A stretch of DNA of 64,000 nucleotides from a virus. The stretch is from positions 3,649 through 67,648 of IMG/VR virus record IMGVR_UViG_3300047333_000104; one strand, given 5' to 3'. Made by a program: the position numbers and the translations under genes. Shown piece after piece: positions 1,956 to 35,794 of this stretch. The notes under the pieces were generated by a model. It had not been told where the DNA came from. It was given only the letters and a program-made list of their open reading frames with translations, and did not search any database. Positions within the stretch are counted from its first letter, which is position 1; every line of letters begins with the position of its first letter.

Positions 1956-1957
1956 GA

Positions 1958-5718: not shown

Positions 5719-5719
5719 G

Positions 5720-6460: not shown

Positions 6461-6530
6461 GGACCCTTGGAGCATTTCTGGTACCGGGGCACCGTTCATG
6501 AAATGTTCTCCAAAAAAAAAGGACGGTACA

Positions 6531-7366: not shown

Positions 7367-7388
7367 ACCCTACGAACGGAGTCACATC

Positions 7389-7591
7389 ATGACCGAGATC
7401 TATCGCTACACTGCGGGCCGCTTGCTTGCTTGCTTGCTGACGACACCTAGAAGTATGAGGAGTTCGATCTCATGGAGAGCGCGCACTGGTTCACGACCGG
7501 CTATCCTGTCAGCACCATTCAGCTCAACGTGGCCGTTAGCGGCGATGCGATCATCCGGGCGTTGGCCGCCCAATCCGATAAGGAGTCATAA
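7389..7591 (+). pseudogene. Probable disrupted small gene
   Basis: (GCTT)4 at 7420-7435 shifts frame; the alternative frame has TAG at 7448 and then a plausible ORF ending at 7591. Confidence 0.4.
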
Positions 7592-7594
7592 GTC

Positions 7595-8236: not shown

Positions 8237-8239
8237 GTC

Positions 8240-8848: not shown

Positions 8849-8970
8849 CCTCGCGAGCCGAGCGCACCGCCGAGTTAGCCGAGGTCGACGCGATGATCCG
8901 GCGGGCTATCGCTTATGCTCGGGCCGGGAAGCGGGTGCCGGTTGAACAGTTATTAGGAGAAGAAAGATGA
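8845..8970 (+). CDS. Small hypothetical protein (41 aa)
   Basis: TTGA overlap at start and ATGA overlap at end; helical sequence. Confidence 0.55.
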   Translation: MTSRAERTAELAEVDAMIRRAIAYARAGKRVPVEQLLGEER

Positions 8971-9458
8971 GCGAGGTACACGACTATCACATCCGACCGC
9001 GGCCCTCGGAGACGAGTTTTACGGTCAAGGTCGATGCGGCGGGAAGCCACATCGTGGTTGATACGTTCTCCAATTTCAATGGCGTGTCGCATCGACTCTT
9101 TCGCGACGTATTGGATGCGCGAGAGAAGGCGACACGCGAAGCATTGATTGCTCTGGGCTGGACGCCGCCCGGCAATGGCTGGCGGCCAATCCCGAAAGAT
9201 CCTTATGCTCGGTTCGAAGGCACGGGGGTGTTGTGGGTCGCGATGTTCCGCGCGGACGATCCATCCACCACGTATGTTATCCATGCGCGGGCAGGGGAGC
9301 ACGGCGCGCTATTCTTTACCGATGGCAGCATGCTTTCGGTAAACGAGCAAGGGTGGGTGCCCTTCGCTTGGAGAGTCGCGGACGCGCCCGCGAGAGACGA
9401 CGAGGCATTCCCGCCCATGTGGACGGACTATCTCACGGAGTCACACCCGTGTCCGTAA
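8967..9458 (+). CDS. Hypothetical protein (163 aa)
   Basis: AGGAG RBS; A.REALI.LGWTPP motif. Confidence 0.75.
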   Translation: MSEVHDYHIRPRPSETSFTVKVDAAGSHIVVDTFSNFNGVSHRLFRDVLDAREKATREALIALGWTPPGNGWRPIPKDPYARFEGTGVLWVAMFRADDPSTTYVIHARAGEHGALFFTDGSMLSVNEQGWVPFAWRVADAPARDDEAFPPMWTDYLTESHPCP

Positions 9459-9970
9459 TCCCTCACGAAACCCTCCTCTCCCTCCGCGAGACCGCCGCAA
9501 CGACCCCACCCGGCGATATCGTCGAGGTCGGCGTGTACCGCGGCGGCAGTGCGTCGGTTCTGGCCGAGGTCTCCCGGTCGAAGGGTTGCCGGCTGCATTT
9601 GTTCGATACGTTCCTCGGCATGCCGTTCGCAGGCGCCGACGACAAGCACCAGGTCGGGGACTTCGGTGACACGTCGTTGCGGGCGGTCAGCGAGTTGGTG
9701 CCGGATGCGCTTATCTACCCCGGCGTCTTTCCGAGCACGCTGCCGGCGACCTGGACCGAGCCGTTCCTGGCGTTCGTGCATTGCGACGTTGATCAGTATG
9801 AGAGCACGCGGTCGGTCATCGAGCACCTATGGCCGATGCTCGTGCCGGGCGGGGTCATGTGGTTTGACGATTGCGAGCTGGCCCCGGCGATGCGGGCGAT
9901 CGAGGAGATGCTGCCGGGCGTTGAGTTGCTCGACGCGCCGGGAGGACGGAGGTGGGCAAAGCGCGATTGA
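9449..9970 (+). CDS. TylF/MycF/NovP-family sugar O-methyltransferase
   Basis: GDIVEVGVYRGGS, LFDTF.GMP, G.F..TL, FVHCDVDQYEST, L.PGGV.WFDD; GTG start after GGAGTCAC. Confidence 0.88.
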   Translation: MSVIPHETLLSLRETAATTPPGDIVEVGVYRGGSASVLAEVSRSKGCRLHLFDTFLGMPFAGADDKHQVGDFGDTSLRAVSELVPDALIYPGVFPSTLPATWTEPFLAFVHCDVDQYESTRSVIEHLWPMLVPGGVMWFDDCELAPAMRAIEEMLPGVELLDAPGGRRWAKRD

Positions 9971-14250: not shown

Positions 14251-14444
14251 CCCGCGTTGAACGTTTGCTTGCCGAGTACCCGGCGTTGTCCCGCGAAGAA
14301 GCTGAGATGGTCCTCGAGGCGGAGCGGATCGTCGCAAGCCAGGAGCTAGAACGTTTGGAGCACGACCTTATCCTTATCACTTTGGAAAACGCTTCTCGCT
14401 ATGACGCCCCCTTCATAGCGGCGTTGAAGGCGGTAGCCACGTGA
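14247..14444 (+). CDS. Hypothetical protein (65 aa)
   Basis: GTGA overlaps at both ends. Confidence 0.6.
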   Translation: MTRVERLLAEYPALSREEAEMVLEAERIVASQELERLEHDLILITLENASRYDAPFIAALKAVAT

Positions 14445-17207: not shown

Positions 17208-17973
17208 AGGTCTGCCCGTGCAGGATGAAAGTGATCGTCTTGTCCTTTGCGGCAGGCGCCCAGCACAGCCCGCACGTTCCGCAGCAATCCGTCTTGTTCG
17301 TTTGTACAGGGCAAATGATGGACCCCGGAGGGGGCGCAGCCGGCGTAAAGTCAACCGTGGTGGCGCGCATAGGGCCGACCTGGCTCCCCGAGAAACGGAC
17401 AACCCAACGATCTGGGTATAGGTCGTTAATTGATGCGACGATCGTGCCGATTTCGGTGTCCGGTTGTCGTGCCGTATATCCGAATACCCGAAGGGCCGGG
17501 AATTGGTTCATCGCCTGCTTCCACAGAAGGGCGTAATCGGCGCTGTAAAAGTCACCGAGGATATGGAGCCGAACCGCGAAACCTTTAGGGTGCTTGGCGT
17601 TTTTCTCGGCTAGTTCTTTCAGCAGTCGGCGTTCTAAATCCTCGCCCGATCGGTGCCGCCGGCTATAGGGCATGCCGTTCCCATAACAGTTCGCCCAGTG
17701 CCCGCAAGAGGTCGGGCAAGTCGCGCGTTCCTCCAGCGTCAGAGTATAGAGGGGCATGCCCGCCCATGCGCCCTTCACTATCTTGTTGCCGAGTTTTCGT
17801 TGATTGATGCCGGACACAAGCAAACGCGGCGAGTCCTGAACGTCGGCCACCGTGGTGGGGAAGATCGTACGGGCTTCACGTAGCGCGGGGTGATCGGTAG
17901 ACAGGCCCCGGACTCTCTGCGGCGACAGTTCCGCATGCTCGGTGAACCGCCGCAGGGGTTTGGACATTCTCAT
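17185..17973 (-). CDS. GP88-like (radical-SAM-related) Fe-S protein
   Basis: TCP.SC...NCY; VRLHILGDF; F.YT; C-terminal CP.Q....CGTCGLCW. Confidence 0.7.
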   Translation of the reverse strand: MRMSKPLRRFTEHAELSPQRVRGLSTDHPALREARTIFPTTVADVQDSPRLLVSGINQRKLGNKIVKGAWAGMPLYTLTLEERATCPTSCGHWANCYGNGMPYSRRHRSGEDLERRLLKELAEKNAKHPKGFAVRLHILGDFYSADYALLWKQAMNQFPALRVFGYTARQPDTEIGTIVASINDLYPDRWVVRFSGSQVGPMRATTVDFTPAAPPPGSIICPVQTNKTDCCGTCGLCWAPAAKDKTITFILHGQTFRGRPAA

Positions 17974-18488
17974 AGCATTTCTCCTAGATCCTCACCACCT
18001 TCCGCGCCCCGATAGTGAACGCACAGTTCCGTCGATCCCGGCTCGAACGATTTGCACAGTTGTGGGCGGTCTTGATAGATCCCGCAGCGCCCGTTCGGCA
18101 GTAGCTTTGTGCAAACGAACTCCGCATAACCGTATTGACGCCCCGTTTCGTCAGATAAGAGCGGTTCTCTAAAGCTCGCCAGGACAGAGGGTGTCTCCCC
18201 GTCCGTCATCTGCGTGTAGGGCTCATCGCGAACATTCCACAGTGGGTCGTCGACCCAATGCGTCAGCCATTCGTCGTTCTTTATGAACTGGATTGTCTTA
18301 CAGCAAGCTCCGGGCGAGTAGCATTGGTCGCAGAGGCTCACAGGAAAGCCCATACTATGATCAAAACCCCGAGCATGAGTACGTAGGTGGTGCCGCGGAT
18401 TAATCCCAGCGCGCGGGTCTGCCGCGGGAGGCTTAGTGAGCGCCACCAAGTTTTCATCGCCGCGCCCGTTCCTCAGCGTTCTGCGCAT
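17970..18488 (-). CDS. YkgJ/CxxCxxCC-family cysteine-cluster protein
   Basis: CDQC..PGACC...C..L..NGRCGIY.DRP.LC..F; true start may be downstream. Confidence 0.8.
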   Translation of the reverse strand: MRRTLRNGRGDENLVALTKPPAADPRAGINPRHHLRTHARGFDHSMGFPVSLCDQCYSPGACCKTIQFIKNDEWLTHWVDDPLWNVRDEPYTQMTDGETPSVLASFREPLLSDETGRQYGYAEFVCTKLLPNGRCGIYQDRPQLCKSFEPGSTELCVHYRGAEGGEDLGEML

Positions 18489-18648
18489 AGAAGGCCAACT
18501 GCTCGAGGCACTCCTCGATCCGCGTCTGCCGATCCCAGAATTCGACGATAGTCTCGGAGATTAGCGCGACGACGCGTTGGTCCGCATCGGGTGCGTCCTT
18601 ATTGGCGAAGAGGTCCGCAAAGCGGGCGGCGAGTTCAGCCCCGGTCAT
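18454..18648 (-). CDS. Small hypothetical protein (64 aa)
   Basis: Overlap-coupled helical ORF. Confidence 0.55.
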   Translation of the reverse strand: MTGAELAARFADLFANKDAPDADQRVVALISETIVEFWDRQTRIEECLEQLAFYAQNAEERARR

Positions 18649-19501
18649 CGATCATCTCCTGAACAGCATCGGCCACGACATCGGGCCGGAACGCATAAAT
18701 GCAAGCGTCCGTACCATAGCGGCAGGACAGGTTCGTGGCGGGCGCCGGCAGCGTTTCCAGGCATCCCTGGCACGGCACGTCGGCCTCCATCTCCTTGACG
18801 CGCCAGCCGCGCTCACCGTGGCGGTACGGCACGCGGTATTTCGCCCGCACGGAGGTGAACAGACCGACGATCGGCGTATCGGTCGCCCCGGCGAGATGCA
18901 AGAGGGCGCTGTCGCTGCCGAGGAAGCAAAGACTGCTAGCGATCAGGTTCGCCGTCTCTCTAAGGCTCGTCTGGCCGACCGCCGAGCCCACGAACGGGCT
19001 TGTAACCCCGTCCGCTCGGAAGTCGGCCCCGCCGCCGACGAACAGCACGCGGTACTCCCGCGCGATCAGAAGCGACGACACTTCAACCCAGAAGTCAGCA
19101 GGCAGCGATCGGCTCGGCCAGGACCGGGCGGCGTGGATCGTAACGAGGCGGTCCTGCTCGCGGAGTTCGAACGGAGCAGGCGGATCAATGCCGAAAACGA
19201 CCCTCTTGTGCTTGTAGTCTCTGGGAGCCCCTGCATATTCGAGATAAGCGTCCACGACGTGCATCGTCGGTTTGCGCTCATACACGAGGTTGAGGTCGAT
19301 GACGCTTGTGAACCCGCCGCTCGCTCGGCCAGGCAGCAGAACCGTCGAGACGTGCGGGTTGTTGAGCAACACTTCGGGGCAGCCGGTCTCAAAGACGATC
19401 TCGGCCTCGGGGCCGTACCAGTCGCGGAGGTAGCGCAGGATCGGCGTAGCGCACAGAACATCACCCAAGGCACCGGTACGGCGGATTAGGATGCGAGTCA
19501 T
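18635..19501 (-). CDS. GT9 family glycosyltransferase (heptosyltransferase-like)
   Basis: R.GALGDVL.ATP.LR.L, L.NNPHV, SLRETA.LI.....FLG.DS..LHLAGA...P.VGLF, terminal Cys cluster. Confidence 0.9.
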   Translation of the reverse strand: MTRILIRRTGALGDVLCATPILRYLRDWYGPEAEIVFETGCPEVLLNNPHVSTVLLPGRASGGFTSVIDLNLVYERKPTMHVVDAYLEYAGAPRDYKHKRVVFGIDPPAPFELREQDRLVTIHAARSWPSRSLPADFWVEVSSLLIAREYRVLFVGGGADFRADGVTSPFVGSAVGQTSLRETANLIASSLCFLGSDSALLHLAGATDTPIVGLFTSVRAKYRVPYRHGERGWRVKEMEADVPCQGCLETLPAPATNLSCRYGTDACIYAFRPDVVADAVQEMIDDRG

Positions 19502-19746
19502 TTTGACTCCCTCACGATACGGTTGATATCGACCGCAACCGGTGGGTGGCCGGCGGCGACGACGGTCAGTTGGACCTTGGCGCCGAACAGCAGCGCGATC
19601 CGCTCGCGCCAAGTTGGCTTCCAGAACGAGATGAAGCTATCGCTGACGCGGAGCACCGGAAGGCCGAGGCATTTGCCCTGGGACTCGTCCCAACCCTCGG
19701 GTGCGCCGAGAACCGCTTGTTGGCCTTTGAAATGGATGGGGTTCAT
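19498..19746 (-). CDS. Small conserved phage protein (82 aa)
   Basis: LGAP.GWD....C..LPV....ISFW.PTWRER..L....V.L....HPPV. Confidence 0.75.
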   Translation of the reverse strand: MNPIHFKGQQAVLGAPEGWDESQGKCLGLPVLRVSDSFISFWKPTWRERIALLFGAKVQLTVVAAGHPPVAVDINRIVRESK

Positions 19747-21202: not shown

Positions 21203-22285
21203 ATGCAAACGGTTCGCGTCGCATATGGGGAGGACCCAACGGGGCTCGGCTTCTACTGGCCGCAGAGCGCCCAGAAGCGTGCCGAAATGAACGCGATCAA
21301 GCGCGGCGATCCCTCGGCCTACGAGTCGGTCTATCAGTGTCGGCCCGGCAGCCGTGAAGGCCAGGTCTTTCTCGAATCGGACTTTGTCGAATATATCCCG
21401 CCGGTCGGCCTGGAGAACGGCGTGCTCGACGAGAGCATCCGCCGTTTCGTTTCCCGAGGAACGGTTGTTCAAGCGTGGGACACCGCGTCCTCAGTCGCGG
21501 CGCAGTCCGCCTACTCCGTGTGCGTAACCGCGCTTTTGATGCCGTGCAACAAGTATCATCGCGCCGAGGACCCCGCGGTCTACGGTCCCTGCGACGACCA
21601 TTACGACGTCCATCTGCTCGACCTCCATAGGGGGCGGTACGCGATCGGCGATCTCGTCGGCGCGTTCAAGATGCAGTACCACATCTGGCGGCCGGAACTG
21701 ATCCTCGTCGAGAAGAAGTCGTCTGGCATCACGCTTGTCCAGACGATGCCCGCGCTCGGGATGCCCGTTAAAGGGATCGAGCCGGAAGGCGGCAAGCGCG
21801 AGCGAGCGACTAGCAACGTCGGCGCCGGTTCCGCGCAGGGTTGGTTCCGTCAGCACCGGGTGCTTCATCCGAAAGACGCGGACTGGGTCGCACCGTGGAA
21901 GCGCGAACTCAAGGATTTCACGGGTAGCGACGAAGGCATCTCAGATCAGGTTGACGCCTCCGTGCATCTTATCCGCCACGCAATCATGTCCGGCGCGCAC
22001 ACCGCGCTTTTGCCAACGGATTGGAGCCCGGAGCGCGGTACGATGGCCGATTCGCAGATGGCGATGGGCGAAGGCGGGGTCTACGCGCCGTTCGCTGATC
22101 CGCGATTAGAATTACTGAACGCGCTTGACATGCTCGGGTCTATGTCGAACGATGCGTTTGAGGGGCTCTGCGGTCGTTGTATCAGCTATTCAGGTGATAC
22201 CTGCACGCTCCATCGCATGAAGAAGATCGCGTTGGACTCCTGCCTCATGTTCTCGGACGCAAACCCCGTAAGCTACTATGGGTGA
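21203..22285 (+). CDS. terL: Terminase large subunit, C-terminal RNase H-like nuclease half
   Basis: DP.G..FYWP, YESVYQCRP...G.VF, QAWDTAS, ILVEKKSSG.TL.Q, ELKDF.......DQVDA. Confidence 0.9.
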   Translation: MQTVRVAYGEDPTGLGFYWPQSAQKRAEMNAIKRGDPSAYESVYQCRPGSREGQVFLESDFVEYIPPVGLENGVLDESIRRFVSRGTVVQAWDTASSVAAQSAYSVCVTALLMPCNKYHRAEDPAVYGPCDDHYDVHLLDLHRGRYAIGDLVGAFKMQYHIWRPELILVEKKSSGITLVQTMPALGMPVKGIEPEGGKRERATSNVGAGSAQGWFRQHRVLHPKDADWVAPWKRELKDFTGSDEGISDQVDASVHLIRHAIMSGAHTALLPTDWSPERGTMADSQMAMGEGGVYAPFADPRLELLNALDMLGSMSNDAFEGLCGRCISYSGDTCTLHRMKKIALDSCLMFSDANPVSYYG

Positions 22286-23957
22286 CTTCGACATCAACGA
22301 AGGTGCGCCAGTCAAAGGGCGCGTCATGCTGCCATCTGCCGGGAGTGCCGCGATGGGCGCGGGCATGTCAGGCATGGTCAGCGACGTCGAGAGCTACGCT
22401 GCGATCTTCGAGACTCAGTACGCCAGAGCGATGGACGCGAGTGACGCAGCAGCGAAAAGTATTGCCGTCCCACCAGGTATGCTGTCGTTCGGCAAGATCA
22501 GCTACATGCCGGAGAGTTACAATTCCGGCGTGCTTCAGTGGCCGGGAATCGCCCCGGAGGCCCTCCGCAAGACCGTCCGCGAGAACCTCGCGCCGCAGCT
22601 CATCATCGGTATGCGTTGCGACGACGTCATTCGCTTCTCGCAGTATTCGACGCACCCCTGGAAGCCAGGCTGGCGCATCGAGCCGATGAATTCCGAAGCG
22701 GCCCCCAGCGTGTCCGACAAAAAGGACATTCAGGAGGTCATTCGGTTCCTGAGTAACTCCAGCATCGACACGACCTACGCGCAAGCTAACGAGCGGGACG
22801 AGCGAAAGCTGACGAATTTTCAGCGGTTCTTGTCGGCGATGACGCGGGATACGCTCACGTTCGACGGGATCGCGGTTTGGAAAGACGTCGACCAAAGCGG
22901 GAAGGTCAAAGCGTATAGCTTGTTGCCGGCCGGGAACATCCGGCTCGTCGGCCCGGACGGGTACCTCGGGAACAAAGACATCGCTTATGTCGCCGTGGAC
23001 GAAGGCAACAAGATCATCCATGAGTTCACACGAGAGGAACTGACGTTCTACATTCGCAACCCTCGGCCGGATGCAGAGTCGTTAGGCTACGGGTATCCGG
23101 AAATCGAAATAGCGATGCGTCTGGTGCAAGGAATACAGAACGCAATTGACCTAAATTGTGACACCTTTAACAAAAATTCCACACCCAACGGTATCCTCGT
23201 CCTCTCCGGTTCGTCCGTTACGCAGCGTCAACTTGATCTGCTCAACCGCATGTGGACGAACCTCAAGAAGGGCATCACGAAAGCGTGGGCTCTCCCGGTG
23301 ATGGGCCTCGCGGACGGCAGCAAGCTCGAAGTCGTCGATATGACCCGGCTCAAGGGCAACGAGGTCTACTACCGCGACTTTCTCAATATGTTCTTCGGCG
23401 CGTTTGCTACTGTTTACCGGTTCCCCGTCAAGCGGATCGGCTACAAGATCAGCGGCCAGGGCCGGGACAACGAGCCGAACCAAGACGCCGCGACCGAGAT
23501 GGACGATAGCGACGATCCGGGTCTTGCTCCGTTGCTCATCCACATCGAGAACGTTATCAACGAGTACCTCGTCTGGACGCGCTGGCCGCATCTGCGTTTC
23601 ACCTTCATCGGCAAGAACCCGAAAGAGGAGATGCGCGGCTTCGAGTTCCGTAAGAACGCCATGACTTTTGGGGAAGCCCGTTCGCTCGGCGATCTCGACG
23701 ACCTCGAGAACGAGGCGAAGGGCGAAGACGAGAAGCTGATCGCCCGCATCATGAACATGGCGCCGCTCGACCCGAATATGTCCGGCGTGTTCCAATCCGT
23801 GGCTGCCGCGTTTATCGCCGCCAAGTTTGGCGCGAAACCGGAGGGCGGCGACAAGGGCAACACGATGACCAGCAAGATCGATCCGGCTCGATCGGCCGAT
23901 CATGGAGCCGAAGCTGGAGTGCGGCGGGATTCAGCCGCGGAAACGAAGAAGGAATAG
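22278..23957 (+). CDS. Portal protein
   Basis: 559 aa; F..F...RD.LTFD, Y.RNPR.D....GYG.PE.E, F.....P.GIL, PLL..IE..IN; SPO1/Twort-type layout. Confidence 0.9.
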   Translation: MGDFDINEGAPVKGRVMLPSAGSAAMGAGMSGMVSDVESYAAIFETQYARAMDASDAAAKSIAVPPGMLSFGKISYMPESYNSGVLQWPGIAPEALRKTVRENLAPQLIIGMRCDDVIRFSQYSTHPWKPGWRIEPMNSEAAPSVSDKKDIQEVIRFLSNSSIDTTYAQANERDERKLTNFQRFLSAMTRDTLTFDGIAVWKDVDQSGKVKAYSLLPAGNIRLVGPDGYLGNKDIAYVAVDEGNKIIHEFTREELTFYIRNPRPDAESLGYGYPEIEIAMRLVQGIQNAIDLNCDTFNKNSTPNGILVLSGSSVTQRQLDLLNRMWTNLKKGITKAWALPVMGLADGSKLEVVDMTRLKGNEVYYRDFLNMFFGAFATVYRFPVKRIGYKISGQGRDNEPNQDAATEMDDSDDPGLAPLLIHIENVINEYLVWTRWPHLRFTFIGKNPKEEMRGFEFRKNAMTFGEARSLGDLDDLENEAKGEDEKLIARIMNMAPLDPNMSGVFQSVAAAFIAAKFGAKPEGGDKGNTMTSKIDPARSADHGAEAGVRRDSAAETKKE

Positions 23958-23962
23958 CCGTG
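23943..23962. repeat. 20-bp direct repeat (ACGAAGAAGGAATAGCCGTG), second copy 24179-24198
   Basis: Both copies comprise ETKKE-stop, RBS and GTG start. Confidence 0.9.
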
Positions 23963-24193
23963 CGGATTGACACGGAGTCAGTGGGGTCGATCGGCTACCG
24001 CACCTCGGGCGGGAAAGTGCAATTGGTCGTACAAGACGCGTGGGGCCGCTATATCCAGGTAGCGGAGGGCGCCGTATCTGAAGGGGCTTTCCAGTTCGTC
24101 TACCCCGTTGGCATCCGGCAGGCGAAATTGGAGGGGAAGACGCCGGAGGGGTTTGATGCCCGACCTGCCCCCGCTGAGACGAAGAAGGAATAG
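23960..24193 (+). CDS. Small hypothetical protein (77 aa)
   Basis: GTG start after AAGGA; flanked by the 20-bp repeat. Confidence 0.7.
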   Translation: MRIDTESVGSIGYRTSGGKVQLVVQDAWGRYIQVAEGAVSEGAFQFVYPVGIRQAKLEGKTPEGFDARPAPAETKKE

Positions 24194-24195
24194 CC

Positions 24196-24438
24196 GTGAA
24201 ACACGCCCACGCGATCGAGAGAGCGTGGGAGAGGCACGGGTTGGAGTTGTCGGAGTCAGATTTCGAAAATGTCATTGCGTCGATCAAGAAAGGTCAGTCC
24301 ATCTTGCAGGGGACCGTTGATCACGGCCTAGAGCGCCGGATAGTCCAAGTCAAAGGGAAAGTCCTTTCGGTTGTTTTCGCACCCGCCGATGGCTACATCG
24401 TTACCGTCCTATCCAATTTCAAAATGCGGAGACCCTAG
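24196..24438 (+). CDS. Small protein, DUF4258/RelE-like pattern
   Basis: HA.ER..ER.G......I...I...; VVF......IVTVL. Confidence 0.55.
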   Translation: MKHAHAIERAWERHGLELSESDFENVIASIKKGQSILQGTVDHGLERRIVQVKGKVLSVVFAPADGYIVTVLSNFKMRRP

Positions 24439-24439: not shown

Positions 24440-27400
24440 ATGTCGAAACTTCAGTTTACCCGTCCCCCTTACGTCCTAGCCCACGCTGGCGATCAGGCAG
24501 GATGCGGTTGGTACAGAATCCAGTCGCCCCTCGAAACCCTGATCAAGAAGGGTTTGATCGCCGGCCGCATCGAGTATTCGTTTCTCTCCGACGACATGCT
24601 CCGCGCGTTGAAACCCGATATCGTGGTGTGGCAGCGCCAGTGCGAGGACTACCAGGTCGACGCGATGCGCCGATATAAAGAGGTTCTTCCGGATCTCTAT
24701 ATGGTCTTCGAGATCGACGATGCGCTCTCCAAAGTGCCTGACGCATCATACCACAAGGCGTTCATGCCGCCGAACATCGACGCCAATCTCGCCAATGCGA
24801 TTTCGCTTTGCGACGTGGTCACCGTTACGACGGCGGACCTCGCGGCGCACATGAAAACGGTCAGTGGCGGCGATACGCCGATCCGTATCGTGCCGAACAT
24901 GCTGGCGCAGGAAGACGTCTACAAAGCTGACGCAGCCCGCGTGGCCGCCCGCAAGTTCCGTTCGAAGCTGCGCGTCGGCTGGGGCGGCGGCATCGGCCAT
25001 ACGGGGGATCTTGCCATCCTCAACCGGGCTATCGCGGAACTTGGCGACGAGGTGGAATGGGCATGGGCCGGCATGCAGCCCGAGATGCCGGAGGGTACGA
25101 TCTCGAAATTCTACGGGGCGGTCGCACCGAAGGAATATCTCAGCCTGCTCGCGTCGATGGATCTCGACCTCATGATCGCCCCGATCGAGGACAACGAATT
25201 TAATCGGTGCAAGTCGAACCTGCGACTGATCGAGGGCGGCGCCTGCGGCTACCCCGTGATCGCCAGCCCGGTCGCGCCCTACCTCAACGCTCCGGTGTTC
25301 GCCTATGCCGCCGGCCCCGAGGATTGGGCCGCTAAGATCCGCGAGTTCGCTGCTCTTTCCGCCGAGGAGCGGGGCACCTGGTCTTCCAAAATGCGGAACT
25401 GGGTCGACCGTAAATGGATTCTCGAAGAGAACGCCGAGGCTCGCGCCAAAGCGTGGCTTCCGCCGAAATCCGAACTCTTCTATCCGAGCCCGAACGTCGT
25501 CGGCAAGATCAGCGGCAGCACGATCATCGTGAGCCGCACGCTCGAAGAGGCGGCGCTTGCCCCCTATAAGGTCGTCAAGACCCTGAAGGACGCGCTGACC
25601 AGCAAGGGCCAGTCCGACATTCTTTACGTCCGGCCGAACGTTGTCATGACCGTCGATCAGATCGAAAGGCTGACGAAGCAAGAGAACTTCGATATCGCTA
25701 CGATATCTACGATGAGCAATGACGGCGGTCCGTGCTCCTTTCCGCAGATCGGCCAATTTACCATGCTCGATCCCGGCGCAGCGGACGCGCTCGATCAATA
25801 CTGCGCGCAGCGGCCCGGTACGGCGGCACTGACCGCTTGCGCCGGACCGGCGGTTTTGCTCAAGCGCACCGCGCTTAATGCGATCGGTTGGCCCGACGAG
25901 GACGAAGTTCTCGATCTTGCGCTGATCGAATGGTCGGCAGCGGCGGCCGGTCGAGGGTTCCGCAACATCGTCGATTTCAGCGTGTATGTCGGATGCCCCT
26001 CTCCGACGACTTTTTCGCAAGATATCGCGCACAACATGGCGATGCGGATTAGCATGCGCTGGCCGCAAGTTCAGACCGAGCATGAGAAAATCGCGGAAGC
26101 GCGCAACTTCCTCGAACTTCGTTTTCACCGCGAGTCCTACCGCTACTTGCCGCCGCAGAACCAAGGCGACTACGCGACCTGGAGTCAGGTCATGGACACG
26201 CTCGGCCCGCGCTCGCTCGCGGCCATGAACGAGTGGGACGCGGCCGACATCCGTCCCCTGGTCGTCGCGCATTCTTATGCCAAGGCGCTCACGCTTCCCG
26301 AGACCGGCGATTGGGTGCTGATGCACAAGATGGGCAGCGTCCTTCCCGAGCAGGCGATCCCGCTTTTCGCGGACTTCATCGCCAAGAACCCCGAAGCGAA
26401 AGTGGTCTACGCTGATCACGATTACCTTGATCAGAACGGCGAGCGCCAGGGCCACGATTTTAAGCCGAACTTCGACCTGCATCTGCTCATGGGCCGCGAC
26501 TACGTTACCCCCGTGTTTGCTGCCCGACGCGCCGATCTCGAACAGATCTCGACGCTCGGTAACGTTCCGGCGGAATGCCTACTTTACGAATTCGTTTTGA
26601 GCGCGGTCGCCCAGTTCGGTCGACAGAGCGTCGTTCATCTTCCCTCCATTCTCGCGCACCTTCCGGTGCCCAGAGTCGACGACCTGGCGGAAGCGGCGCG
26701 GATCAAATCGGAGATGGCCACCAAGTTCGCCGCACATATCGGCATGGACGCCCAGGTCAAGCCGCATGCGATCGGCCTCGGCTTGATGGATGTGAGCTTC
26801 GGTCGCGGCAAAACACTCGACATCCCGCACGTCTCGATCATCATTCCGACGAAGAATCGGATCGACATGATCGCCCCATGTCTTGCGACCGTCTTGTCTT
26901 TGACGACCTACCCGAGTTTCGAGGTATTGGTCATCGACAACGGCAGCGACAAGCAGGATGTGCTCGACTATTTCGCGGGGGTTGCGGACAAGCGCGTTCG
27001 GATCATCCAGCATGACGTGCCGTTCAACTGGTCTGAGATCAACAATTTCGCGGTCAAGCAGGCCAAGGGCAGCATCTTGTGCTTTCTCAACGACGATACC
27101 CGCGTTTCGTCCGGAGATTGGCTGACCGAGATGGTCGGCGCCGCGCTCTACGAGGACGTGGGCGCGGTCGGCGCTCGGCTGGTCTACCCGAACGGGACGC
27201 TCCAGCATATCGGCGTCGTCGCACGAGGCGGCATCTGCGGCCACATCCACAAGGGGCTTGCGGCCAATCTGATCGGGTACCACGGCATCGCTATCCTGCC
27301 GCACGAGAACGCCGCTCAGACCGGAGCATGCATGGTCGTTCGCCGCGAAATATACGACCGGATCGGCGGTTTCGACGAATCTTTTTCGAATAACTACAAC

Positions 27401-28249
27401 GACGTGGCGTTTTGCCTAGAAGCGCGCCGTCTCGGCCTGGTTAACGTTTATGCGCCGCGCGCCGAGTTGCAGCATTTCGAGGGCGTATCGCGAGTGTCGG
27501 GCATGACGTCCGAGGGGCAGAAGCTCCTGCATGAGGAGGGCGTCTTGCTCGGCGATAAGTATCCCGAGGACGATCCCTACTGGAACCGCAATCTCGTATT
27601 CGCCGGCCAGAAGGGCGGCATGTACGTCGTCGGCACCAATTACGATATGCTCAATTGGATGCCGCCCGTGTACCCATGGGCCGGCGAACGCGGCGAACCG
27701 CGCCGTGTTCTCCTGGTCGGTCCGACTGAAACGGCGCTCTCCGAACGTCAGGACGGTTGCGCGGTCTTCACACTCGGCATCCGCGGCAACGAAGTGCGGA
27801 TCGTCGATCCGCCGATGGAGAACAGCAAGACGTTCGATCTTCGTTACCCGCAGGAGATGGTCGAGTCTCTCGCCGCCCTCGGGATCGACGAGGTTATCCT
27901 GACTTCGGCAGCCGGCGTCCCGTTGATCGTCTTATCATTCTTGAGCCGCCTCGGGCTTCCCGTCACCTATCGGCCGATCGACGCCGAGATGGTATGCCCG
28001 CGCCTCGACCTGACCGCTTCCGGCTCGCCGTGCGACCGGGGATGGGCGACAGGCGGCTGCCAATCGTGCCTTGACGAACACGGGTCGGCGAATGGTTACG
28101 TGAACCGCATCTCGTGGATGAGCGAATGGGTTCGGTTCACCAGCAACCCCTCGGTAACGATCGATCTCTCGGAGGTCGAAGAGGAACGGTTTGCCGACGC
28201 GATCATGGAAGTGTTTCGGCCGGACGAATTAGTGCGGGCGGCCGAATGA
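24440..28249 (+). CDS. Multidomain glycosyltransferase (GT4-like + degenerate GT2 + GT2), 1269 aa
   Basis: N-terminal GCG.YRI..P, EIDD, VGW.GG..H.GDL, APIEDN.FN.CKSNLRL.E.GACG.PV; later VSIIIPTKN, VIDNGS, FNWS.INN, LCFLNDD, G.FDE....YNDV.FCL. Confidence 0.9.
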   Translation: MSKLQFTRPPYVLAHAGDQAGCGWYRIQSPLETLIKKGLIAGRIEYSFLSDDMLRALKPDIVVWQRQCEDYQVDAMRRYKEVLPDLYMVFEIDDALSKVPDASYHKAFMPPNIDANLANAISLCDVVTVTTADLAAHMKTVSGGDTPIRIVPNMLAQEDVYKADAARVAARKFRSKLRVGWGGGIGHTGDLAILNRAIAELGDEVEWAWAGMQPEMPEGTISKFYGAVAPKEYLSLLASMDLDLMIAPIEDNEFNRCKSNLRLIEGGACGYPVIASPVAPYLNAPVFAYAAGPEDWAAKIREFAALSAEERGTWSSKMRNWVDRKWILEENAEARAKAWLPPKSELFYPSPNVVGKISGSTIIVSRTLEEAALAPYKVVKTLKDALTSKGQSDILYVRPNVVMTVDQIERLTKQENFDIATISTMSNDGGPCSFPQIGQFTMLDPGAADALDQYCAQRPGTAALTACAGPAVLLKRTALNAIGWPDEDEVLDLALIEWSAAAAGRGFRNIVDFSVYVGCPSPTTFSQDIAHNMAMRISMRWPQVQTEHEKIAEARNFLELRFHRESYRYLPPQNQGDYATWSQVMDTLGPRSLAAMNEWDAADIRPLVVAHSYAKALTLPETGDWVLMHKMGSVLPEQAIPLFADFIAKNPEAKVVYADHDYLDQNGERQGHDFKPNFDLHLLMGRDYVTPVFAARRADLEQISTLGNVPAECLLYEFVLSAVAQFGRQSVVHLPSILAHLPVPRVDDLAEAARIKSEMATKFAAHIGMDAQVKPHAIGLGLMDVSFGRGKTLDIPHVSIIIPTKNRIDMIAPCLATVLSLTTYPSFEVLVIDNGSDKQDVLDYFAGVADKRVRIIQHDVPFNWSEINNFAVKQAKGSILCFLNDDTRVSSGDWLTEMVGAALYEDVGAVGARLVYPNGTLQHIGVVARGGICGHIHKGLAANLIGYHGIAILPHENAAQTGACMVVRREIYDRIGGFDESFSNNYNDVAFCLEARRLGLVNVYAPRAELQHFEGVSRVSGMTSEGQKLLHEEGVLLGDKYPEDDPYWNRNLVFAGQKGGMYVVGTNYDMLNWMPPVYPWAGERGEPRRVLLVGPTETALSERQDGCAVFTLGIRGNEVRIVDPPMENSKTFDLRYPQEMVESLAALGIDEVILTSAAGVPLIVLSFLSRLGLPVTYRPIDAEMVCPRLDLTASGSPCDRGWATGGCQSCLDEHGSANGYVNRISWMSEWVRFTSNPSVTIDLSEVEEERFADAIMEVFRPDELVRAAE

Positions 28250-28671
28250 GTATCGACCGCATCTACGGGCCTCTCGAGCATTACGACTATGGCGTCCTCG
28301 ACAGGCATTGTCTCTGCGATCTGTGTCTGGAATGGCGGGCCGCGCAGCGTACCTGGCACGAGTACCAAGACAATAAGCGGAAAAATCCGCAGGATCGAAT
28401 TGCTCACCGCTCCACCTATCTCGCCGCAGTATCGCGGCGAGACCTCTATTGCGAGTCGTCTTGGCACGCATCGGAGAATAGGTGGGGCGAGGACTACATG
28501 GACTGGATCTCTCGGCAGATTACCGAGACAGCAGAGCGATCGAAATACTGGTGGCGGACGGAGGGACTTTCCTCTCCATTGCTTTACTGGTTTCGGCAGT
28601 TCAACGTCTATCGTCGTTCGAACGCTACGGCGGCTTTCGACCCTCCTCTGATCGACCTGCGCGGCGCGTAG
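28246..28671 (+). CDS. Hypothetical protein (141 aa, C.C..C motif)
   Basis: ATGA overlap with GT gene. Confidence 0.6.
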   Translation: MSIDRIYGPLEHYDYGVLDRHCLCDLCLEWRAAQRTWHEYQDNKRKNPQDRIAHRSTYLAAVSRRDLYCESSWHASENRWGEDYMDWISRQITETAERSKYWWRTEGLSSPLLYWFRQFNVYRRSNATAAFDPPLIDLRGA

Positions 28672-28725
28672 CATCTTATGTAACAGCCGGAGCGCGTGAT
28701 ATCCTCCACGCAACGGAGGATATCA

Positions 28726-29316
28726 ATGCTTGAAGCGCGCTGGGCAAAAGGGGTTCTGACGATCACGTCTCTCGCGGCGGACCCTGCATCTGCGGCGATC
28801 GAGATTGTCGGTGCGGACGGCAGCCGTGTTCCGTTCGTCAAAGCGTTTCCTGCCGGCGCGGCGCACATTAAGATCGCGATGGAGCGCCCGCATAGCGTAT
28901 TTTTATCCTCAATTGCGGCGAAAAGCGTTCCGGTACGGACACTTAAACCGATCGACGATACGTACTCGCACCCGCCGTTTCCCTACGACCCACAAGCATT
29001 CGACAAACTTCGCCCGGACCAAGTGCCTCGGTTCCTGGGAGCCTTGACCGATCCAGATCGTCTCGAACATCGCCGCATCAGGCTTAACGACCTTGTCGCG
29101 ATGCAGAACCGCGTCGATCGTGGGAAAGTCGAATCGGCCCGAACTCGCGAGGGCGGCAGACCGCCGGTCGTCGTTCGGATGGATGGACGATACTATATTG
29201 CGGACGGGCACCATCGGATGGCAGCCGCCTATCTAAATGGCGATCAAGATCACGAATGTCTGTTCCTCGACCTTACCCCCGTGAACAACGCAATGAAGGG
29301 CCGCAGCCATGCGTGA
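28726..29316 (+). CDS. ParB/Srx-like domain protein
   Basis: L.AMQ.RVD..KV, PVVVR..GRYYIADGHHR.AA; GGAGG RBS. Confidence 0.8.
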   Translation: MLEARWAKGVLTITSLAADPASAAIEIVGADGSRVPFVKAFPAGAAHIKIAMERPHSVFLSSIAAKSVPVRTLKPIDDTYSHPPFPYDPQAFDKLRPDQVPRFLGALTDPDRLEHRRIRLNDLVAMQNRVDRGKVESARTREGGRPPVVVRMDGRYYIADGHHRMAAAYLNGDQDHECLFLDLTPVNNAMKGRSHA

Positions 29317-30211: not shown

Positions 30212-30296
30212 CATACCTACTAGACGCCGAAAATAACGCTGTGTGATTATAGAGCGCAATTATCCACCTTCGGCGCTCCTGAAGAGAGGTCACGTC

Positions 30297-31520
30297 ATGA
30301 ATCCCAAACAGATCCTTGAGGCTATCGGCATCCTGGCTAAGGCTCCCGCCGCCGAAGTCGCCAAAATTCTGCAGGACAGCGCCCTCGACAAGGCCGCGCA
30401 GGATCTCACCCACTCGGAGATGGTCGAAAGCCGGTGGGAAGAAGGTCATATGCATGAGCATATCTCGCGTGAGGTCATTCGTACCGGCCCCGAGCAAAAG
30501 GCTTCGGGCGACGGCGCCGAGAAGATGATCCGCGACTATTCGAATGTCGCGACCCAGCAGGCCGGCATCATGCAGCAGGCCGAATCGCTGGCGCGCTTGA
30601 TCGCTCCGATCGCCGCCTCCTCGAAAGCCCAGACCGCCGCGGTCACCGCGCTCATCGAGAACGTCAAGTCGCTCAATGTAACGCTCGCCGCGCTCGTTAC
30701 GGCCAAAGCCGAAGGCGAAGACAAGATGGTCGAAGAAGACGACGAGGACGAAAAGGAAACCAAGGAGATGGCCGCTGAGAAGGCCAAGTCCCTGGTCGCT
30801 CGCGCCAAGATCCTGCTCACCAAAGCCAAGAAGGCCGAGGGTGACGCCATGATGGTCGAAGACGACGAGGAAGAAGAGAAAGCTTGCAAGAAGAAAGCCA
30901 AGGCTTTCCGCAAGCAGGCCGCTGTTCTCCTCGGCAAAGCCCGCACCGCCGCCTTCGTGGCCGGTGATCGCGAGACCCGCAAATCGATCGCCCAGATCGC
31001 CGCCAAGTCCGACATTACCGTCGTCGAGGACGACGAAGATGAGGATGACGACGAGAAGGAGAAGGCGAAAGCCGCCGCCGAGAAAGCCAAGGGCCATGAC
31101 GCCGCCGGCAACCAAGCCGATTTCTCGAACAAGGACGGCAATCAGGACAGCACCGCCGTCAAGGCAGTGAGCGAGATGTCCGGCAAGGTCGAAGAGGCGC
31201 TGAAAGGTTTTGGCATGCTCTCGATGGAACTGAAAGACATGATGAACGTCGTGTCCGGTCGTTCGAAGGGCACGGGCGCCGTTCCCGAGTTCACCAAGTC
31301 TGCCGTCGATCCGACGCTTGCGCTGGTCAACAAGATCGAAGAACTCGAAGACGCCGGACAATTGAGCGACACGGATGCGTTCGCCGCCCGCGACATTGTC
31401 TCGAAGATGACCGCCGCTCGTGCCGGCCAGTTGGACGCTTCGATCGTTCATGATCGGATCGCCAAGTCCACGCTGCCTGTGCAGATGTTGTTCAAGGCCG
31501 CTACCACGGCTGCCGCCTAA
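30297..31520 (+). CDS. Scaffolding-like acidic coiled-coil protein
   Basis: Repeated MVEEDDEDE/KAKA tracts; between protease and MCP. Confidence 0.7.
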   Translation: MNPKQILEAIGILAKAPAAEVAKILQDSALDKAAQDLTHSEMVESRWEEGHMHEHISREVIRTGPEQKASGDGAEKMIRDYSNVATQQAGIMQQAESLARLIAPIAASSKAQTAAVTALIENVKSLNVTLAALVTAKAEGEDKMVEEDDEDEKETKEMAAEKAKSLVARAKILLTKAKKAEGDAMMVEDDEEEEKACKKKAKAFRKQAAVLLGKARTAAFVAGDRETRKSIAQIAAKSDITVVEDDEDEDDDEKEKAKAAAEKAKGHDAAGNQADFSNKDGNQDSTAVKAVSEMSGKVEEALKGFGMLSMELKDMMNVVSGRSKGTGAVPEFTKSAVDPTLALVNKIEELEDAGQLSDTDAFAARDIVSKMTAARAGQLDASIVHDRIAKSTLPVQMLFKAATTAAA

Positions 31521-31551: not shown

Positions 31552-33342
31552 ATGCCCGATGGTAACTTCAGCCACATGGTGCCCAAGGCGGAACGCGATT
31601 TCGCGATCTCCAAAGCCGTCGATACGATGGCTCGGTTCGTCAACCCGAATGACCCGCTGCGCGACTTCTATCTGAGCGTCGCGGGCTATCGTCCGGAACT
31701 GACCGAGCAGATCCAGGCGAAGACGGCGCCGGAGATCGCCAAGGCGAATGCGATCGCCAAGATCTTCCGTTCCAACACCCGCGCCGCTCGGTTCGCGACC
31801 AAGAAGGAACTCGTCGAGAAGGGCGCCCTCTCGAAGGCGCAGCTTGACGTCGGTTCGCTCACCAACTTCGCGCAGATTACCGGCGGCCAGTCGCTCGGCT
31901 ATGTCTCGCTCGATACTCAGATGGCCCGCGGCACGGTGCGCCCAAACAGCTTCACGCTGTATCAGGCGCTCCACAAGTCGGCCGCTTTCCAGGTCGTCGA
32001 CTACTGGCCGTACGCTTCCGATACCGGCGGCGGTCTGCCCGGCACGGCATTCAGCGGCTTCAGCAACGTGTCCTCGGGCACCCTGTCGACCTCGGCCGGC
32101 ATCTACTCGCTGAACAACATCACGCTGAAGCTGGCCGTCAACGGTCGCGCGATCACCACCGCCCTGGCCGCCCAGAATTCCTTCGTGGATGTCTCGGCCC
32201 AGGAGAACATCAACGCGGCGCTGACGGTGCTGGAATCGGTCAACTGGTCCTGCTACTGGGGCAACCCTGCGCTCTACCCGAACCAGTTCCAGGGTATCGC
32301 GGGCGTCATTCCCGCCACCAACATCTTCGACTACCAGGCGTTCTACAACAACTTCGCCACGGCGCAAGGCTGGAGCGCCGCGCAGGCGATGTTCAACCTG
32401 ATCTACGAAGCCTCGGCGAAGATCACCGGCTACCGTCAGTACGGTCGCATCACGCACGCTTTCATGTCCCCGGTTTGCGCCGGCAGCTTGCAGGGCCTCG
32501 TGACCACGCTGCTGAACAACATCACCAACAACATCACGCCCGCCCAAGAACGTCTGCACGGCGTGATCGTCGATGGCGATCTGCAGGGCATCCGGACCCG
32601 CTTCGGCGAGATCCAGTTCCCGATCGACTTCTACATCACCGCTCGTGACAAGCCGGCCCAGACCGTCGTGTACGGCAACGGCACGAACGCCGCGTTCACC
32701 AGCAGCCCGACTCCCCCGACGTCCGTCGCCGCCGCCCTGGTTACGGGCGTGGTTTCGGGGTCCGCGTGGACGTCCGCCTATGTCGCCAGCAGCGGTATTT
32801 ACAGCTACGCGGTCGCCGGCTGCGATCAGCTGATGAACGAATCGTACCTGACCTTCGTGTCCTCGGGCGGCGTCGCCGCTTCGGGTCTGGCGGTCTCCGG
32901 CGTCACCGTCGCCAGCGGCGCCTACCAGCTGACGATTACCCCGGCGGACACCTCGTGCCAGGCGTTCCGCGTTTACCGCAGCGGCCTCGGCTACGCTCCG
33001 GTTGGTTCGGGCAACGCGAACCCCGCTTCATACCGCTACATCGGTTCGGTGCTGGCGTCGGGTTCGTCTCCCGTCACCTTCACGGACCTGAACACGTACA
33101 TCCCCGGCAGCGAGACGGTCTTCCTGCTCGATCTCGACGAACAAGACAATGCGATCGATTTCCGCTTCCTGCTGCCGCTGACGCGCATAGAGCTGTTCGC
33201 TCAGTCGCTATACATGCCCTGGGCCGTAGCAGAAATTGGTAGCGTAAGAGTTCGCATCCCCAAGTTCAATGGGTATGTGAAGAACTATGTTCCGGATTCG
33301 ACGGACTTCAATCCCTTAGCTCCGAACGCTCTCGCGACCTAA
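31552..33342 (+). CDS. Major capsid protein (SPO1/Twort-type with inserted beta domain)
   Basis: Highly codon-biased 596-aa ORF; YSYAV...ES, LTI, FRVYR, FTD.N.YIPG..VF, LLPL..I.L; probable KA cleavage of an N-terminal propeptide. Confidence 0.88.
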   Translation: MPDGNFSHMVPKAERDFAISKAVDTMARFVNPNDPLRDFYLSVAGYRPELTEQIQAKTAPEIAKANAIAKIFRSNTRAARFATKKELVEKGALSKAQLDVGSLTNFAQITGGQSLGYVSLDTQMARGTVRPNSFTLYQALHKSAAFQVVDYWPYASDTGGGLPGTAFSGFSNVSSGTLSTSAGIYSLNNITLKLAVNGRAITTALAAQNSFVDVSAQENINAALTVLESVNWSCYWGNPALYPNQFQGIAGVIPATNIFDYQAFYNNFATAQGWSAAQAMFNLIYEASAKITGYRQYGRITHAFMSPVCAGSLQGLVTTLLNNITNNITPAQERLHGVIVDGDLQGIRTRFGEIQFPIDFYITARDKPAQTVVYGNGTNAAFTSSPTPPTSVAAALVTGVVSGSAWTSAYVASSGIYSYAVAGCDQLMNESYLTFVSSGGVAASGLAVSGVTVASGAYQLTITPADTSCQAFRVYRSGLGYAPVGSGNANPASYRYIGSVLASGSSPVTFTDLNTYIPGSETVFLLDLDEQDNAIDFRFLLPLTRIELFAQSLYMPWAVAEIGSVRVRIPKFNGYVKNYVPDSTDFNPLAPNALAT

Positions 33343-33366: not shown

Positions 33367-33398
33367 AAAGGCCCGCTACGTAGCGGGCCTTTTCTTTT
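33367..33398 (+). terminator. Rho-independent terminator after MCP
   Basis: AAAGGCCCGCTA CG TAGCGGGCCTTT followed by TCTTTT. Confidence 0.9.
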
Positions 33399-35368: not shown

Positions 35369-35794
35369 ATGCGCTTCTTCGCTCTCCTCCGCCCGAACTG
35401 CCGCGTCGATAAAGCGTGGCGCGCAGCGCACCGTAACGGCGGCCAGATCGCGGGCGTTCAGTTCTCGGTGATCCCCGGCGCAGTCGTGAATGCGCTCGAC
35501 GCGTCGAGGGGGACGTACCGGACGGGCGAGCTGGACGGCGATCAGGTCGCGGCGCTGCAGGGCAATCTCAGCGTCGTGATCGAAGTCACGGGGCAGGAGC
35601 TTCCGGCGAGCGTTGAGGTGCTATCGGGCGATGCGAAGCCTGCGCCCACGCCCGTCCCGACGGAGCCCCCTGTCGTCACCCCGCCGCCCGCTCCTGCTCC
35701 CACCTTGGCCTCGAAACCAACCGTCACGACCCTCTCCAGCGCCAAGCCGTCGACCATTCTCAGCAGCGGCGGCAACCCCAAGAAGGGGCGCTAA
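35369..35794 (+). CDS. Hypothetical protein with Pro/Thr-rich tail (possibly virion-associated)
   Basis: AAGGA RBS; position after MCP. Confidence 0.65.
   Translation: MRFFALLRPNCRVDKAWRAAHRNGGQIAGVQFSVIPGAVVNALDASRGTYRTGELDGDQVAALQGNLSVVIEVTGQELPASVEVLSGDAKPAPTPVPTEPPVVTPPPAPAPTLASKPTVTTLSSAKPSTILSSGGNPKKGR

Follow-up and report, generated by a model that had tools for sequence, protein, structure and literature searches.

What does a bacteriophage gain from a giant glycosyltransferase (GT) encoded in the middle of its head genes, and which molecule does such an enzyme modify? These questions are raised by a stretch of 64,000 nt, hereafter called the window, which corresponds to positions 3,649 to 67,648 of the IMG/VR record IMGVR_UViG_3300047333_000104. 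The record is 87,337 bp long, 93% complete and originates from a moss metagenome. The gene at the centre of this study is the following:

24440..28249 (+): giant multidomain glycosyltransferase, 1269 aa (P0001); open frame with no internal stop, ATG start codon, GGAG-type Shine-Dalgarno sequence upstream

Here we describe this protein as a permuted relative of bacterial flagellin O-glycosyltransferases whose gene keeps its place beside that of the portal throughout a clade of environmental myoviruses, and we weigh the possibility that it may glycosylate the structural proteins of the phage that encodes it. The original prediction placed a 1269-aa GT between the portal and prohead protease genes. 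This placement was confirmed by the open reading frame (ORF) at 24440-28249 and by matches of its neighbours to PHROG families and to proteins of Dolphis, a Pseudomonas phage that we used as a GT-less comparison. A nucleotide search against 50,697 phage records gave no match, and no close relative of this phage has been sequenced. Among isolates, those nearest to it are Dolphis, Touem01, PHB04 and the Thermus phage Lalka; they have major capsid proteins (MCPs) with about 25-29% identity to that of the window, and all of them lack the giant GT. Since tail sheath, tube and baseplate genes are found downstream of the head genes in the window, the phage is a myovirus.

The giant GT is related to flagellin glycosyltransferases

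The original prediction derived the kinship of this protein from a series of motifs thought to match the GT-B domain of FgtA-type flagellin glycosyltransferases from Pseudomonas. All the quoted motifs are present between residues 21 and 341: GCGWYRI (21-27), WQRQ (64-67), EIDD (91-94), RVGWGGG (178-184), HTGDL (187-191), KSNLRLIE (258-265), GACGYPV (267-273) and AWLP (338-341). Most of the motifs of the GT-B domain are invariant across 53 homologues. The proposed homology was borne out by BLASTP, in which residues 10-341 of the giant GT aligned with residues 864-1189 of P0065, a 1190-aa protein of Pseudomonas chlororaphis encoded next to flgL (36% identity, E 9e-50). A second segment, residues 621-1010, aligned with residues 404-795 of the same protein (29% identity, E 3e-41). 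The P0065 gene follows flgK and flgL, and is itself followed by thymidine-diphosphate (dTDP)-sugar, methyltransferase and CmcI-type genes and by a second large GT gene, which is the layout of an fgt1/fgt2 flagellin glycosylation island. The Fgt1 enzyme of P. syringae transfers rhamnose to serine residues of flagellin (PMC3927599).

Three more bacterial homologues, one from Erwinia and two from other bacteria (P0123 and P0126), are encoded within 2-6 kb of fliC, flaG, fliD and fliS. The bacterial loci inspected were thus four: P0065, the Erwinia protein (best named match), and P0123 and P0126 (best profile matches). The original prediction had considered that the closest homologues might turn out to be O-antigen enzymes; instead, all four inspected homologues with both modules adjoin flagellin genes. 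The two modules also match about 40 other bacterial proteins. In one fusion of a GT2 module with a GT9 domain, which lacks the GT-B domain, the locus is not flagellar; it is therefore the cassette of two modules, and not the GT2 module alone, that is associated with flagellar loci. As for nomenclature, the P. aeruginosa enzyme is presumably PA1091, and the name FgtA is also given to an unrelated C. difficile enzyme.

Compared to the Fgt1/FgtA enzymes, which are about 1190 aa long and whose genes lie between flgL and fliC, the phage protein has in common the GT-B domain (34-39% identity, E ~1e-46 to 1e-52) and the GT2 module (24-29% identity), with the shared motif series ELDD/EIDD, RVGWGGG..HTGDL, CKSNLRL.E.GACGYPVI and WLP. 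Both are soluble polypeptides with several GT domains, and both are accompanied by sugar O-methyltransferases. By contrast, the GT-B domain opens the phage protein, while in essentially all bacterial proteins with both modules it directly follows the GT2 module and comes last. No counterpart of the first GT2 domain of Fgt1 was detected in the phage protein, which has two extra domains (residues 346-620 and 1035-1269), and the phage gene is located in a head operon, between portal and protease, rather than in a flagellin glycosylation island. No Flagellin_N match was found in the 87-kb phage genome.

The permuted domain order that had been suspected was thus confirmed, with the GT-B domain at residues 1-345 here and at the C-terminus in the bacterial proteins. 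The family to which the GT-B domain belongs is extensive, with 1,976 representative clusters at E <= 1e-30; the domain is C-terminal in 138 bacterial-type representatives and N-terminal in 68. In a FastTree phylogeny of 226 GT-B domains, the 68 N-terminal-type representatives fell into one clade with a Shimodaira-Hasegawa-like support of 99. Two changes of architecture, one of them concerning an outlier on a long branch, are enough to account for this tree, and the permuted form is essentially a single clade. A simple circular permutation of the whole of Fgt1 was considered as an explanation and was not supported. Only two modules are common to the two proteins, and in a profile-profile comparison the phage middle domain showed no similarity to the GT2 domain that comes first in Fgt1 (probability 0.5%).

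The same GT-B family also includes stand-alone phage enzymes, collected in phrog_7162. These proteins, exemplified by gp073 and gp074 of the Escherichia phage phAPEC8 (profile E 1e-33 and 2e-27), differ from the giant GT in consisting of a single domain of 320-430 aa with about 25% identity, and the phAPEC8 genes are found in a four-GT cluster beside replication genes, not in the head module. In the phAPEC8 contig (L008), this cluster of four consecutive annotated GTs occupies positions 5717-8864 next to primase/helicase genes, and gp073 and gp074 are its GT-B paralogues.

Domain organization of the 1269-residue protein

Full-length homologues of the giant GT number about 45, with 39-65% identity and lengths of 1216-1321 aa, encoded on metagenomic contigs of up to 117 kb. 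Their alignment delineated four conserved regions, which we treat as domains:

24440..25474 (+): domain 1, aa 1-345, complete GT-B fold, GT4-like; AlphaFold2 (AF2) predicted local distance difference test (pLDDT) score 95.7, PHROG 7162 E 4e-38
25475..26299 (+): domain 2, aa 346-620, middle domain conserved among homologues, with a GT-A-like fold as a mere lead
26300..27499 (+): domain 3, aa 621-1020, GT2 module consisting of a pre-domain (ADHD, 658-661) and a canonical GT2 domain, 796-1015 (NDD, 884-886)
27542..28246 (+): domain 4, aa 1035-1269, Rossmann domain like the N-terminal (acceptor-side) half of GT4 enzymes; AF2 pLDDT 86.9

Domain 1 had been described as a GT4-like GT-B domain, and both the AF2 model and Foldseek agreed with this description. 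The best Foldseek matches were the retaining GT4 enzymes MshA, BshA, PglA and PimB' (E ~1e-10 to 1e-11, TM-score 0.6-0.73). The domain is made of two Rossmann halves, with a weak Pfam Glyco_trans_1_2 match at residues 223-326, and its invariant residues are E91, D93, D94, H105, N153, G180, G183, G184, H187, D190, K258, S259 and E265, among which K258 and E265 mark the EX7E region of the C-terminal half. Sequence searches of the PDB with the profiles of the N-terminal and middle domains returned nothing useful.

Domain 2 has the conserved residues D393, N427, D428, G469, P470 and R476. A language-model feature search linked it to GT2-like clusters (score 0.90-0.94), and we treat a GT-A-like fold as a lead only. 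Domain 3 contains a canonical GT2 domain (Pfam PF00535, E 7.8e-22, 78.4 bits against a cut-off of 23.3). Its invariant residues are D659 and D661, then N884, D885 and D886, which form the DXD motif, and Q922. The original prediction spoke of GT2 domains in the plural in the C-terminal part of the protein. One canonical GT2 domain (796-1015) was confirmed, preceded by a conserved pre-domain (621-790) that co-aligns with Fgt1, and the plural is thus only partly justified.

Domain 4 had been overlooked. It contains four near-invariant cysteines (1186, 1198, 1207 and 1210), and matched AFDB clusters named "Glycosyltransferase subfamily 4-like N-terminal domain" (E 1e-8), while Foldseek against the PDB gave no match at E <= 1e-3. 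VIA-align found similarity to residues 1-158 of WbnH (Z 7.6) and to BshA (Z 7.2). There is no matching donor half, and because the donor-binding half is missing the domain is unlikely to be catalytic; a binding or regulatory role may be proposed. Across 45-53 homologues the catalytic signatures of the protein are kept, namely EIDD, the GWGGG..H..D loop, K258/E265 and NDD. The giant GT has no signal peptide and no convincing transmembrane segment: the 19-residue stretch with the highest hydrophobicity (1151-1169) forms a buried strand/helix in the AF2 model. It is thus a soluble, cytoplasmic protein.

The portal, the giant GT and a small partner form a conserved block

The gene that follows the giant GT encodes a small protein with a conserved position:

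28246..28671 (+): 141-aa Cys/Trp-rich protein, translationally coupled to the GT by an ATGA overlap with the GT stop; homologue in L002

This protein has no match in Pfam, PHROG or NCBIfam, and the ATGA overlap is kept in relatives. Another ORF in the GT's own frame, at 28289-28651 (+, 120 aa, Arg/Gly/Ser-rich), was considered as the next gene and looks spurious, the conserved gene being 28246-28671 in a different frame. A complex prediction of the C-terminal domain of the giant GT with the 141-aa protein gave a score of 0.00, which speaks neither for nor against binding.

The order portal, giant GT, Cys/Trp-rich protein of about 140 aa was found in every related contig with enough sequence to judge it, about 16 in total. 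In the window and in six contigs fetched by protein identity or portal similarity (L002, L003, L004, L014, L015 and L016), the giant GT follows the portal gene with 0-2 small ORFs between them, and in the same six contigs a member of the 141-aa family was detected downstream of the GT by tblastn or hidden Markov model (HMM). L014 is the most divergent member, with 26% identity, and its block is intact though the next genes are baseplate genes on the opposite strand. A scan of IMG/VR with the GT-B profile returned 431 viral stretches. Among the 13 IMG/VR loci of the giant N-terminal type, a portal homologue was directly upstream in all 12 that have upstream DNA, and the 141-aa family was downstream in 11 of the 13. 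The remaining 66 IMG/VR loci are mostly stand-alone homologues of 320-430 aa, of the phrog_7162 family, with a few longer ORFs. The clade comprises about 70 representative sequences from environmental myoviruses with genomes of roughly 80-115 kb. In Dolphis the slot after the portal is occupied by gp6 (384 aa), which was examined as a counterpart of the giant GT and proved unrelated to it.

Several individual contigs deserve a comment. L033 carries, at 268-3801, an ORF of 1178 aa with the bacterial-type order, in which the GT-B domain is at the C-terminus, and no portal gene nearby; either the mis-binning of a bacterial fragment or a separate acquisition by a phage may explain this contig. The portal ORFs of L023/L024 (267-3125 and 4614-7472) and L030 (3951-6986) are 953-1012 aa long, compared to ~560-600 aa elsewhere; since each of them is matched by the portal HMM over only a part of its length, an intein or other insertion may be present. 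In L003, a Pfam match to Acb1 (anti-CBASS phosphodiesterase) lies at 14533-15234, between the GT partner gene and the protease gene.

The giant GT gene lies in the head operon

The genes that surround the block are listed in the order of their positions:

21203-22285 (+): nuclease half of a split large terminase (phrog_38 positions 487-713)
22278..23957 (+): portal protein (phrog_15361 E 2.5e-22, phrog_12 E 6.6e-21)
23960..24438 (+): two small ORFs of 77 and 80 aa that separate the portal gene from the GT gene and match no family
28696..29316 (+): 206-aa protein with a weak ParB-like-nuclease/VapB-like match; homologue in L002
29309..30211 (+): prohead (capsid maturation) protease; phrog_1028 E 3.6e-5 (weak), Dolphis capsid maturation protease 33% identity, E 9e-22
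30243..31520 (+): probable scaffold protein, acidic, Ala/Glu/Lys-rich; assigned by position and composition only, no family match
31552..33342 (+): MCP with an insertion domain at about aa 380-510; phrog_752 E 3.4e-36, Dolphis MCP 27% identity
33367..33392 (+): intrinsic-terminator-like hairpin with an 11-bp stem and a T tail, directly after the MCP gene

The genes from portal to MCP are tightly packed or overlapping, and the hairpin at 33367-33392 is the only strong terminator-like one in this block. For these reasons it is plausible, judging from the sequence, that the giant GT is co-transcribed with the head genes, which would imply late expression. A search for RNA runs containing the sequence found none.

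A candidate system for glycosylation of the phage's own virion

To our knowledge, a few mycobacteriophages are the only tailed phages in which virion glycosylation has been demonstrated; there it protects the particles from antibodies. In the mycobacteriophage Corndog, genes for an O-methyltransferase, two GTs and an N-acetylglucosamine (GlcNAc)-transferase are found between the portal and capsid maturation protease genes (PMC4351075). Capsid and tail-tube subunits of mycobacteriophages are reported to carry glycans (Freeman et al. 2023, cited in PMC12619734). The layout in the window resembles that of Corndog gp35-38, in that both have GT and O-methyltransferase genes in the virion structural operon and a GT between portal and protease. 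The sugar genes of the window that may take part in such a system lie outside the head block:

9233..9970 (+): TylF/Methyltransf_24-type sugar O-methyltransferase (Pfam PF05711 E 1e-15, PF13578 E 2e-11)
18635..19504 (-): GT9-family (heptosyltransferase-like) GT (Pfam PF01075 E 6e-14), with a probable ATG at 19504
17970..18488 (-): CxxCxxCC protein, putatively Zn/Fe-chelating (Pfam PF03692 E 7e-6), co-conserved

The O-methyltransferase and gp35 of Corndog are homologues (30% identity, E 3e-14), and the L002 counterpart adjoins the GT9 gene. Homologues of the GT9 protein are encoded in L002, L003, L004 and L016, and the CxxCxxCC protein is encoded directly upstream of the giant GT in L003. L004 also carries a uridine diphosphate (UDP)-galactopyranose mutase (GLF) and an epimerase. 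In the window genome no nucleotide-sugar epimerase and no sugar-nucleotide genes were found, and the phage must therefore draw on host nucleotide-sugars. The possibility that the GT9 protein is a protein heptosyltransferase of the TibC/Aah type (bacterial autotransporter heptosyltransferase, BAHT) was not supported, with TIGR04414 matching at E 2e-4 and 20 bits against a cut-off of 200, and TibC in the PDB at E 0.2. The NCBIfam models of lipopolysaccharide (LPS) heptosyltransferase I and II matched more strongly than TIGR04414 (E 1e-13 and 8e-11), all of them below cut-off.

We favour the interpretation that the giant GT acts on the phage's own structural proteins, and consider its chances to be about even. 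It is favoured because of the ancestry of the enzyme among protein O-glycosyltransferases, its solubility, its place in a terminator-free head operon, the lack of a flagellin or hydroxymethylase gene, and the Corndog precedent. The following scheme can be proposed. The GT2 and GT-B cassette would have descended from bacterial flagellin O-glycosyltransferases of the Fgt1/FgtA type and would have been permuted in the myovirus clade, with the GT-B domain moving to the N-terminus and with the gain of the middle domain and of the half-GT-B/Cys4 domain. The gene would then have become fixed directly downstream of the portal gene. Transcribed late together with the head genes, the enzyme would use host nucleotide-sugars and act in the cytoplasm, before particles are assembled or in the course of their assembly, by attaching sugars to Ser/Thr residues of phage structural proteins and then extending them. 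The GT9 protein and the TylF-type O-methyltransferase would elaborate or cap the glycan, and substrate recognition may be provided by the extra domains, the coupled 141-aa protein, or both. The complete scenario, in which a myovirus clade whose hosts are probably Gram-negative captured a flagellin O-glycosyltransferase, permuted it and locked it beside the portal with a Cys-rich partner for glycosylation of its own capsid or tail, GT9 and the O-methyltransferase elaborating the glycan, we hold more tentatively, as somewhat short of an even chance.

Which virion proteins could be the acceptors? One candidate is encoded shortly after the MCP gene:

35369..35794 (+): small post-MCP protein with a Pro/Thr/Ser-rich, mucin-like C-terminal tail, a speculative candidate substrate

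Its counterpart in L003 has a poly-Pro/Ser tail, while gp11 of Dolphis has a charged low-complexity tail instead. The original prediction had relied on Ser/Gly-rich virion surfaces, in particular the MCP insert, and this argument proved weak. The S/G/A-rich insert was rejected as evidence for a GT-specific substrate because it aligns with the same insertion domain in the MCP of Dolphis, a phage without such a GT.

The loss of the MCP insert as an argument is one of several points that weigh against glycosylation of the virion. The tail tube and sheath differ only slightly from those of Dolphis, by minor extensions, so that among the compared virion proteins (MCP insert, sheath and tube against Dolphis) no feature correlates with the presence of the GT. 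Portal-based searches of IMG/VR for close relatives lacking the GT returned only contigs that carry it. The GTs of Corndog (gp36-38) are not homologous to the giant GT, the best E value of the family HMM being 0.0015 for gp37, at the level of generic GT2 domains, and the parallel is therefore only positional. The GT2 module on its own is found outside flagellar loci as well, and enzymes of the LPS core are typical of the GT9 family.

Other possible acceptors

Kinship with flagellin-modifying enzymes would also suit an enzyme directed at the host. The giant GT could glycosylate host flagellin or another surface protein, e.g. pilin, so as to mask a receptor, with superinfection exclusion or reduced attachment of progeny to debris as the outcome. 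Both of its modules derive from enzymes whose genes were found in flagellin loci in each of the four cases examined, and it is cytoplasmic, like the flagellin GTs that act before export. We nevertheless consider this explanation unlikely. The gene is part of a myovirus head operon and gives no indication of being expressed early on its own, a cytoplasmic enzyme could not modify filaments that have already been assembled outside the cell, and the replacement of the first GT2 domain of Fgt1 together with the addition of two new domains suggests that the enzyme has been retargeted. The acceptor could also be a lipid-linked or LPS-core glycan, in which case the giant GT, the GT9 protein and the O-methyltransferase would remodel the LPS, capsule or exopolysaccharide of the host in a manner similar to seroconversion. 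The GT9 family is that of the LPS heptosyltransferases, GT2 modules similar to that of the phage are found fused to GT9 and in non-flagellar, polysaccharide-like loci, and one homologue was named "O-antigen biosynthesis protein" by the Joint Genome Institute (JGI). However, the inspected homologues that have both modules are flagellar in four cases out of four, the giant GT has no membrane segments, and no flippase, polymerase or Gtr-type genes were found. A late-operon position in an apparently lytic myovirus would also be atypical for seroconversion, although this is a weak point, as no integrase search was made. Taken together, these observations make remodelling of surface polysaccharides distinctly unlikely.

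The strict linkage to the portal gene invites a different explanation: the GT may be a portal-associated cargo of the virion, packaged and injected with the DNA, which would glycosylate a host or phage target at the onset of infection. The linkage is kept in about 16 contigs, also where the rest of the head module has been reshuffled. Minor head proteins or ejected proteins are often encoded just after the portal, and in Dolphis this slot is taken by the unrelated 384-aa protein. No MuF/gp7-like or capsid-targeting region is detectable in the giant GT, however, and the Corndog GTs, whose genes occupy this slot as well, were not detected in virions (PMC4351075), so that injection of the enzyme appears highly unlikely. 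The least probable acceptor, to be entertained with great reserve, is DNA, whose bases would be glycosylated to evade restriction. Hydroxymethylated bases are known substrates of phage enzymes of both GT-B and GT-A type, and phAPEC8 has its two stand-alone GT-B paralogues beside replication genes. The giant GT gene, by contrast, lies in the head operon and not in a replication module, its nearest cellular relatives are protein GTs, and no thymidylate-synthase-like hydroxymethylase homologue was found in the 93%-complete genome.

Relation to known virion glycosylation systems

Virus-encoded glycosylation of the virion is already known in mycobacteriophages and chloroviruses. In the chlorovirus PBCV-1, A064R is a multi-domain GT and methyltransferase that builds the MCP glycan. 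The proposed function of the giant GT resembles that of A064R, a virus-encoded cytoplasmic multi-domain GT that acts on the virus's own capsid protein, with sugar methylation; A064R, however, belongs to a eukaryotic giant virus and makes atypical N-linked glycans. In Corndog several small, separate GTs are encoded by a siphovirus of actinobacterial hosts, whereas here one giant fused enzyme derived from flagellin GTs is encoded by a myovirus. In the mycobacteriophage systems (Corndog; Che8 and Myrna) glycosylation has been demonstrated, while here it is a proposal. What is new in the candidate enzyme is its flagellin-GT lineage, its giant permuted fusion, its two added domains, its small partner and its fixed position next to the portal.

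If glycosylation of the phage's own particle is confirmed, virion glycosylation systems would for the first time extend beyond actinobacteriophages, and a host protein-glycosylation enzyme would have been redirected to the particle of a virus. The addition of sugars to particles would then be a strategy more widespread among phages, with consequences for adsorption, for stability in soil, moss or water, and for recognition by defences or grazers. The giant GT family would provide a natural example of acceptor change in a protein O-glycosyltransferase, by way of permutation, a half-GT-B/Cys4 domain and a partner protein, which could help to understand uncharacterised Fgt1/FgtA enzymes and be of use in glyco-engineering. 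Whatever the target, the invariant block of portal, GT and partner is a clean, testable unit.

Other genes of the window

The large terminase is split, with the ATPase half at 14441-15316 (+, phrog_38 positions 276-479) 5.9 kb apart from the nuclease half at 21203-22285 (+). The pre-portal terminase ORF of the relatives is only 354-390 aa long. Between the two halves lie a minus-strand cassette (GT9, CxxCxxCC and GP88/DUF7227-like proteins) and a DUF4214 protein. In this cassette, the ORF 17185-17973 matches GP88/DUF7227, and the ORF 19943-20746 matches nothing. The DUF4214 protein (15313-17028, +, 571 aa) has a C-terminal DUF4214 domain (Pfam E 7e-8) and a phrog_19005 match.

Directly after the MCP terminator, at 33501-35186 (+), the window encodes a 561-aa homing endonuclease of the HNH/endonuclease VII type, and HNH genes occupy the same post-MCP spot, on either strand, in L002, L004 and L015. 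Finally, a 313-aa protein with 38% glycine is encoded at 58243-59184 (+), in the tail/baseplate region, and may be a collagen-like or Gly-rich fibre.

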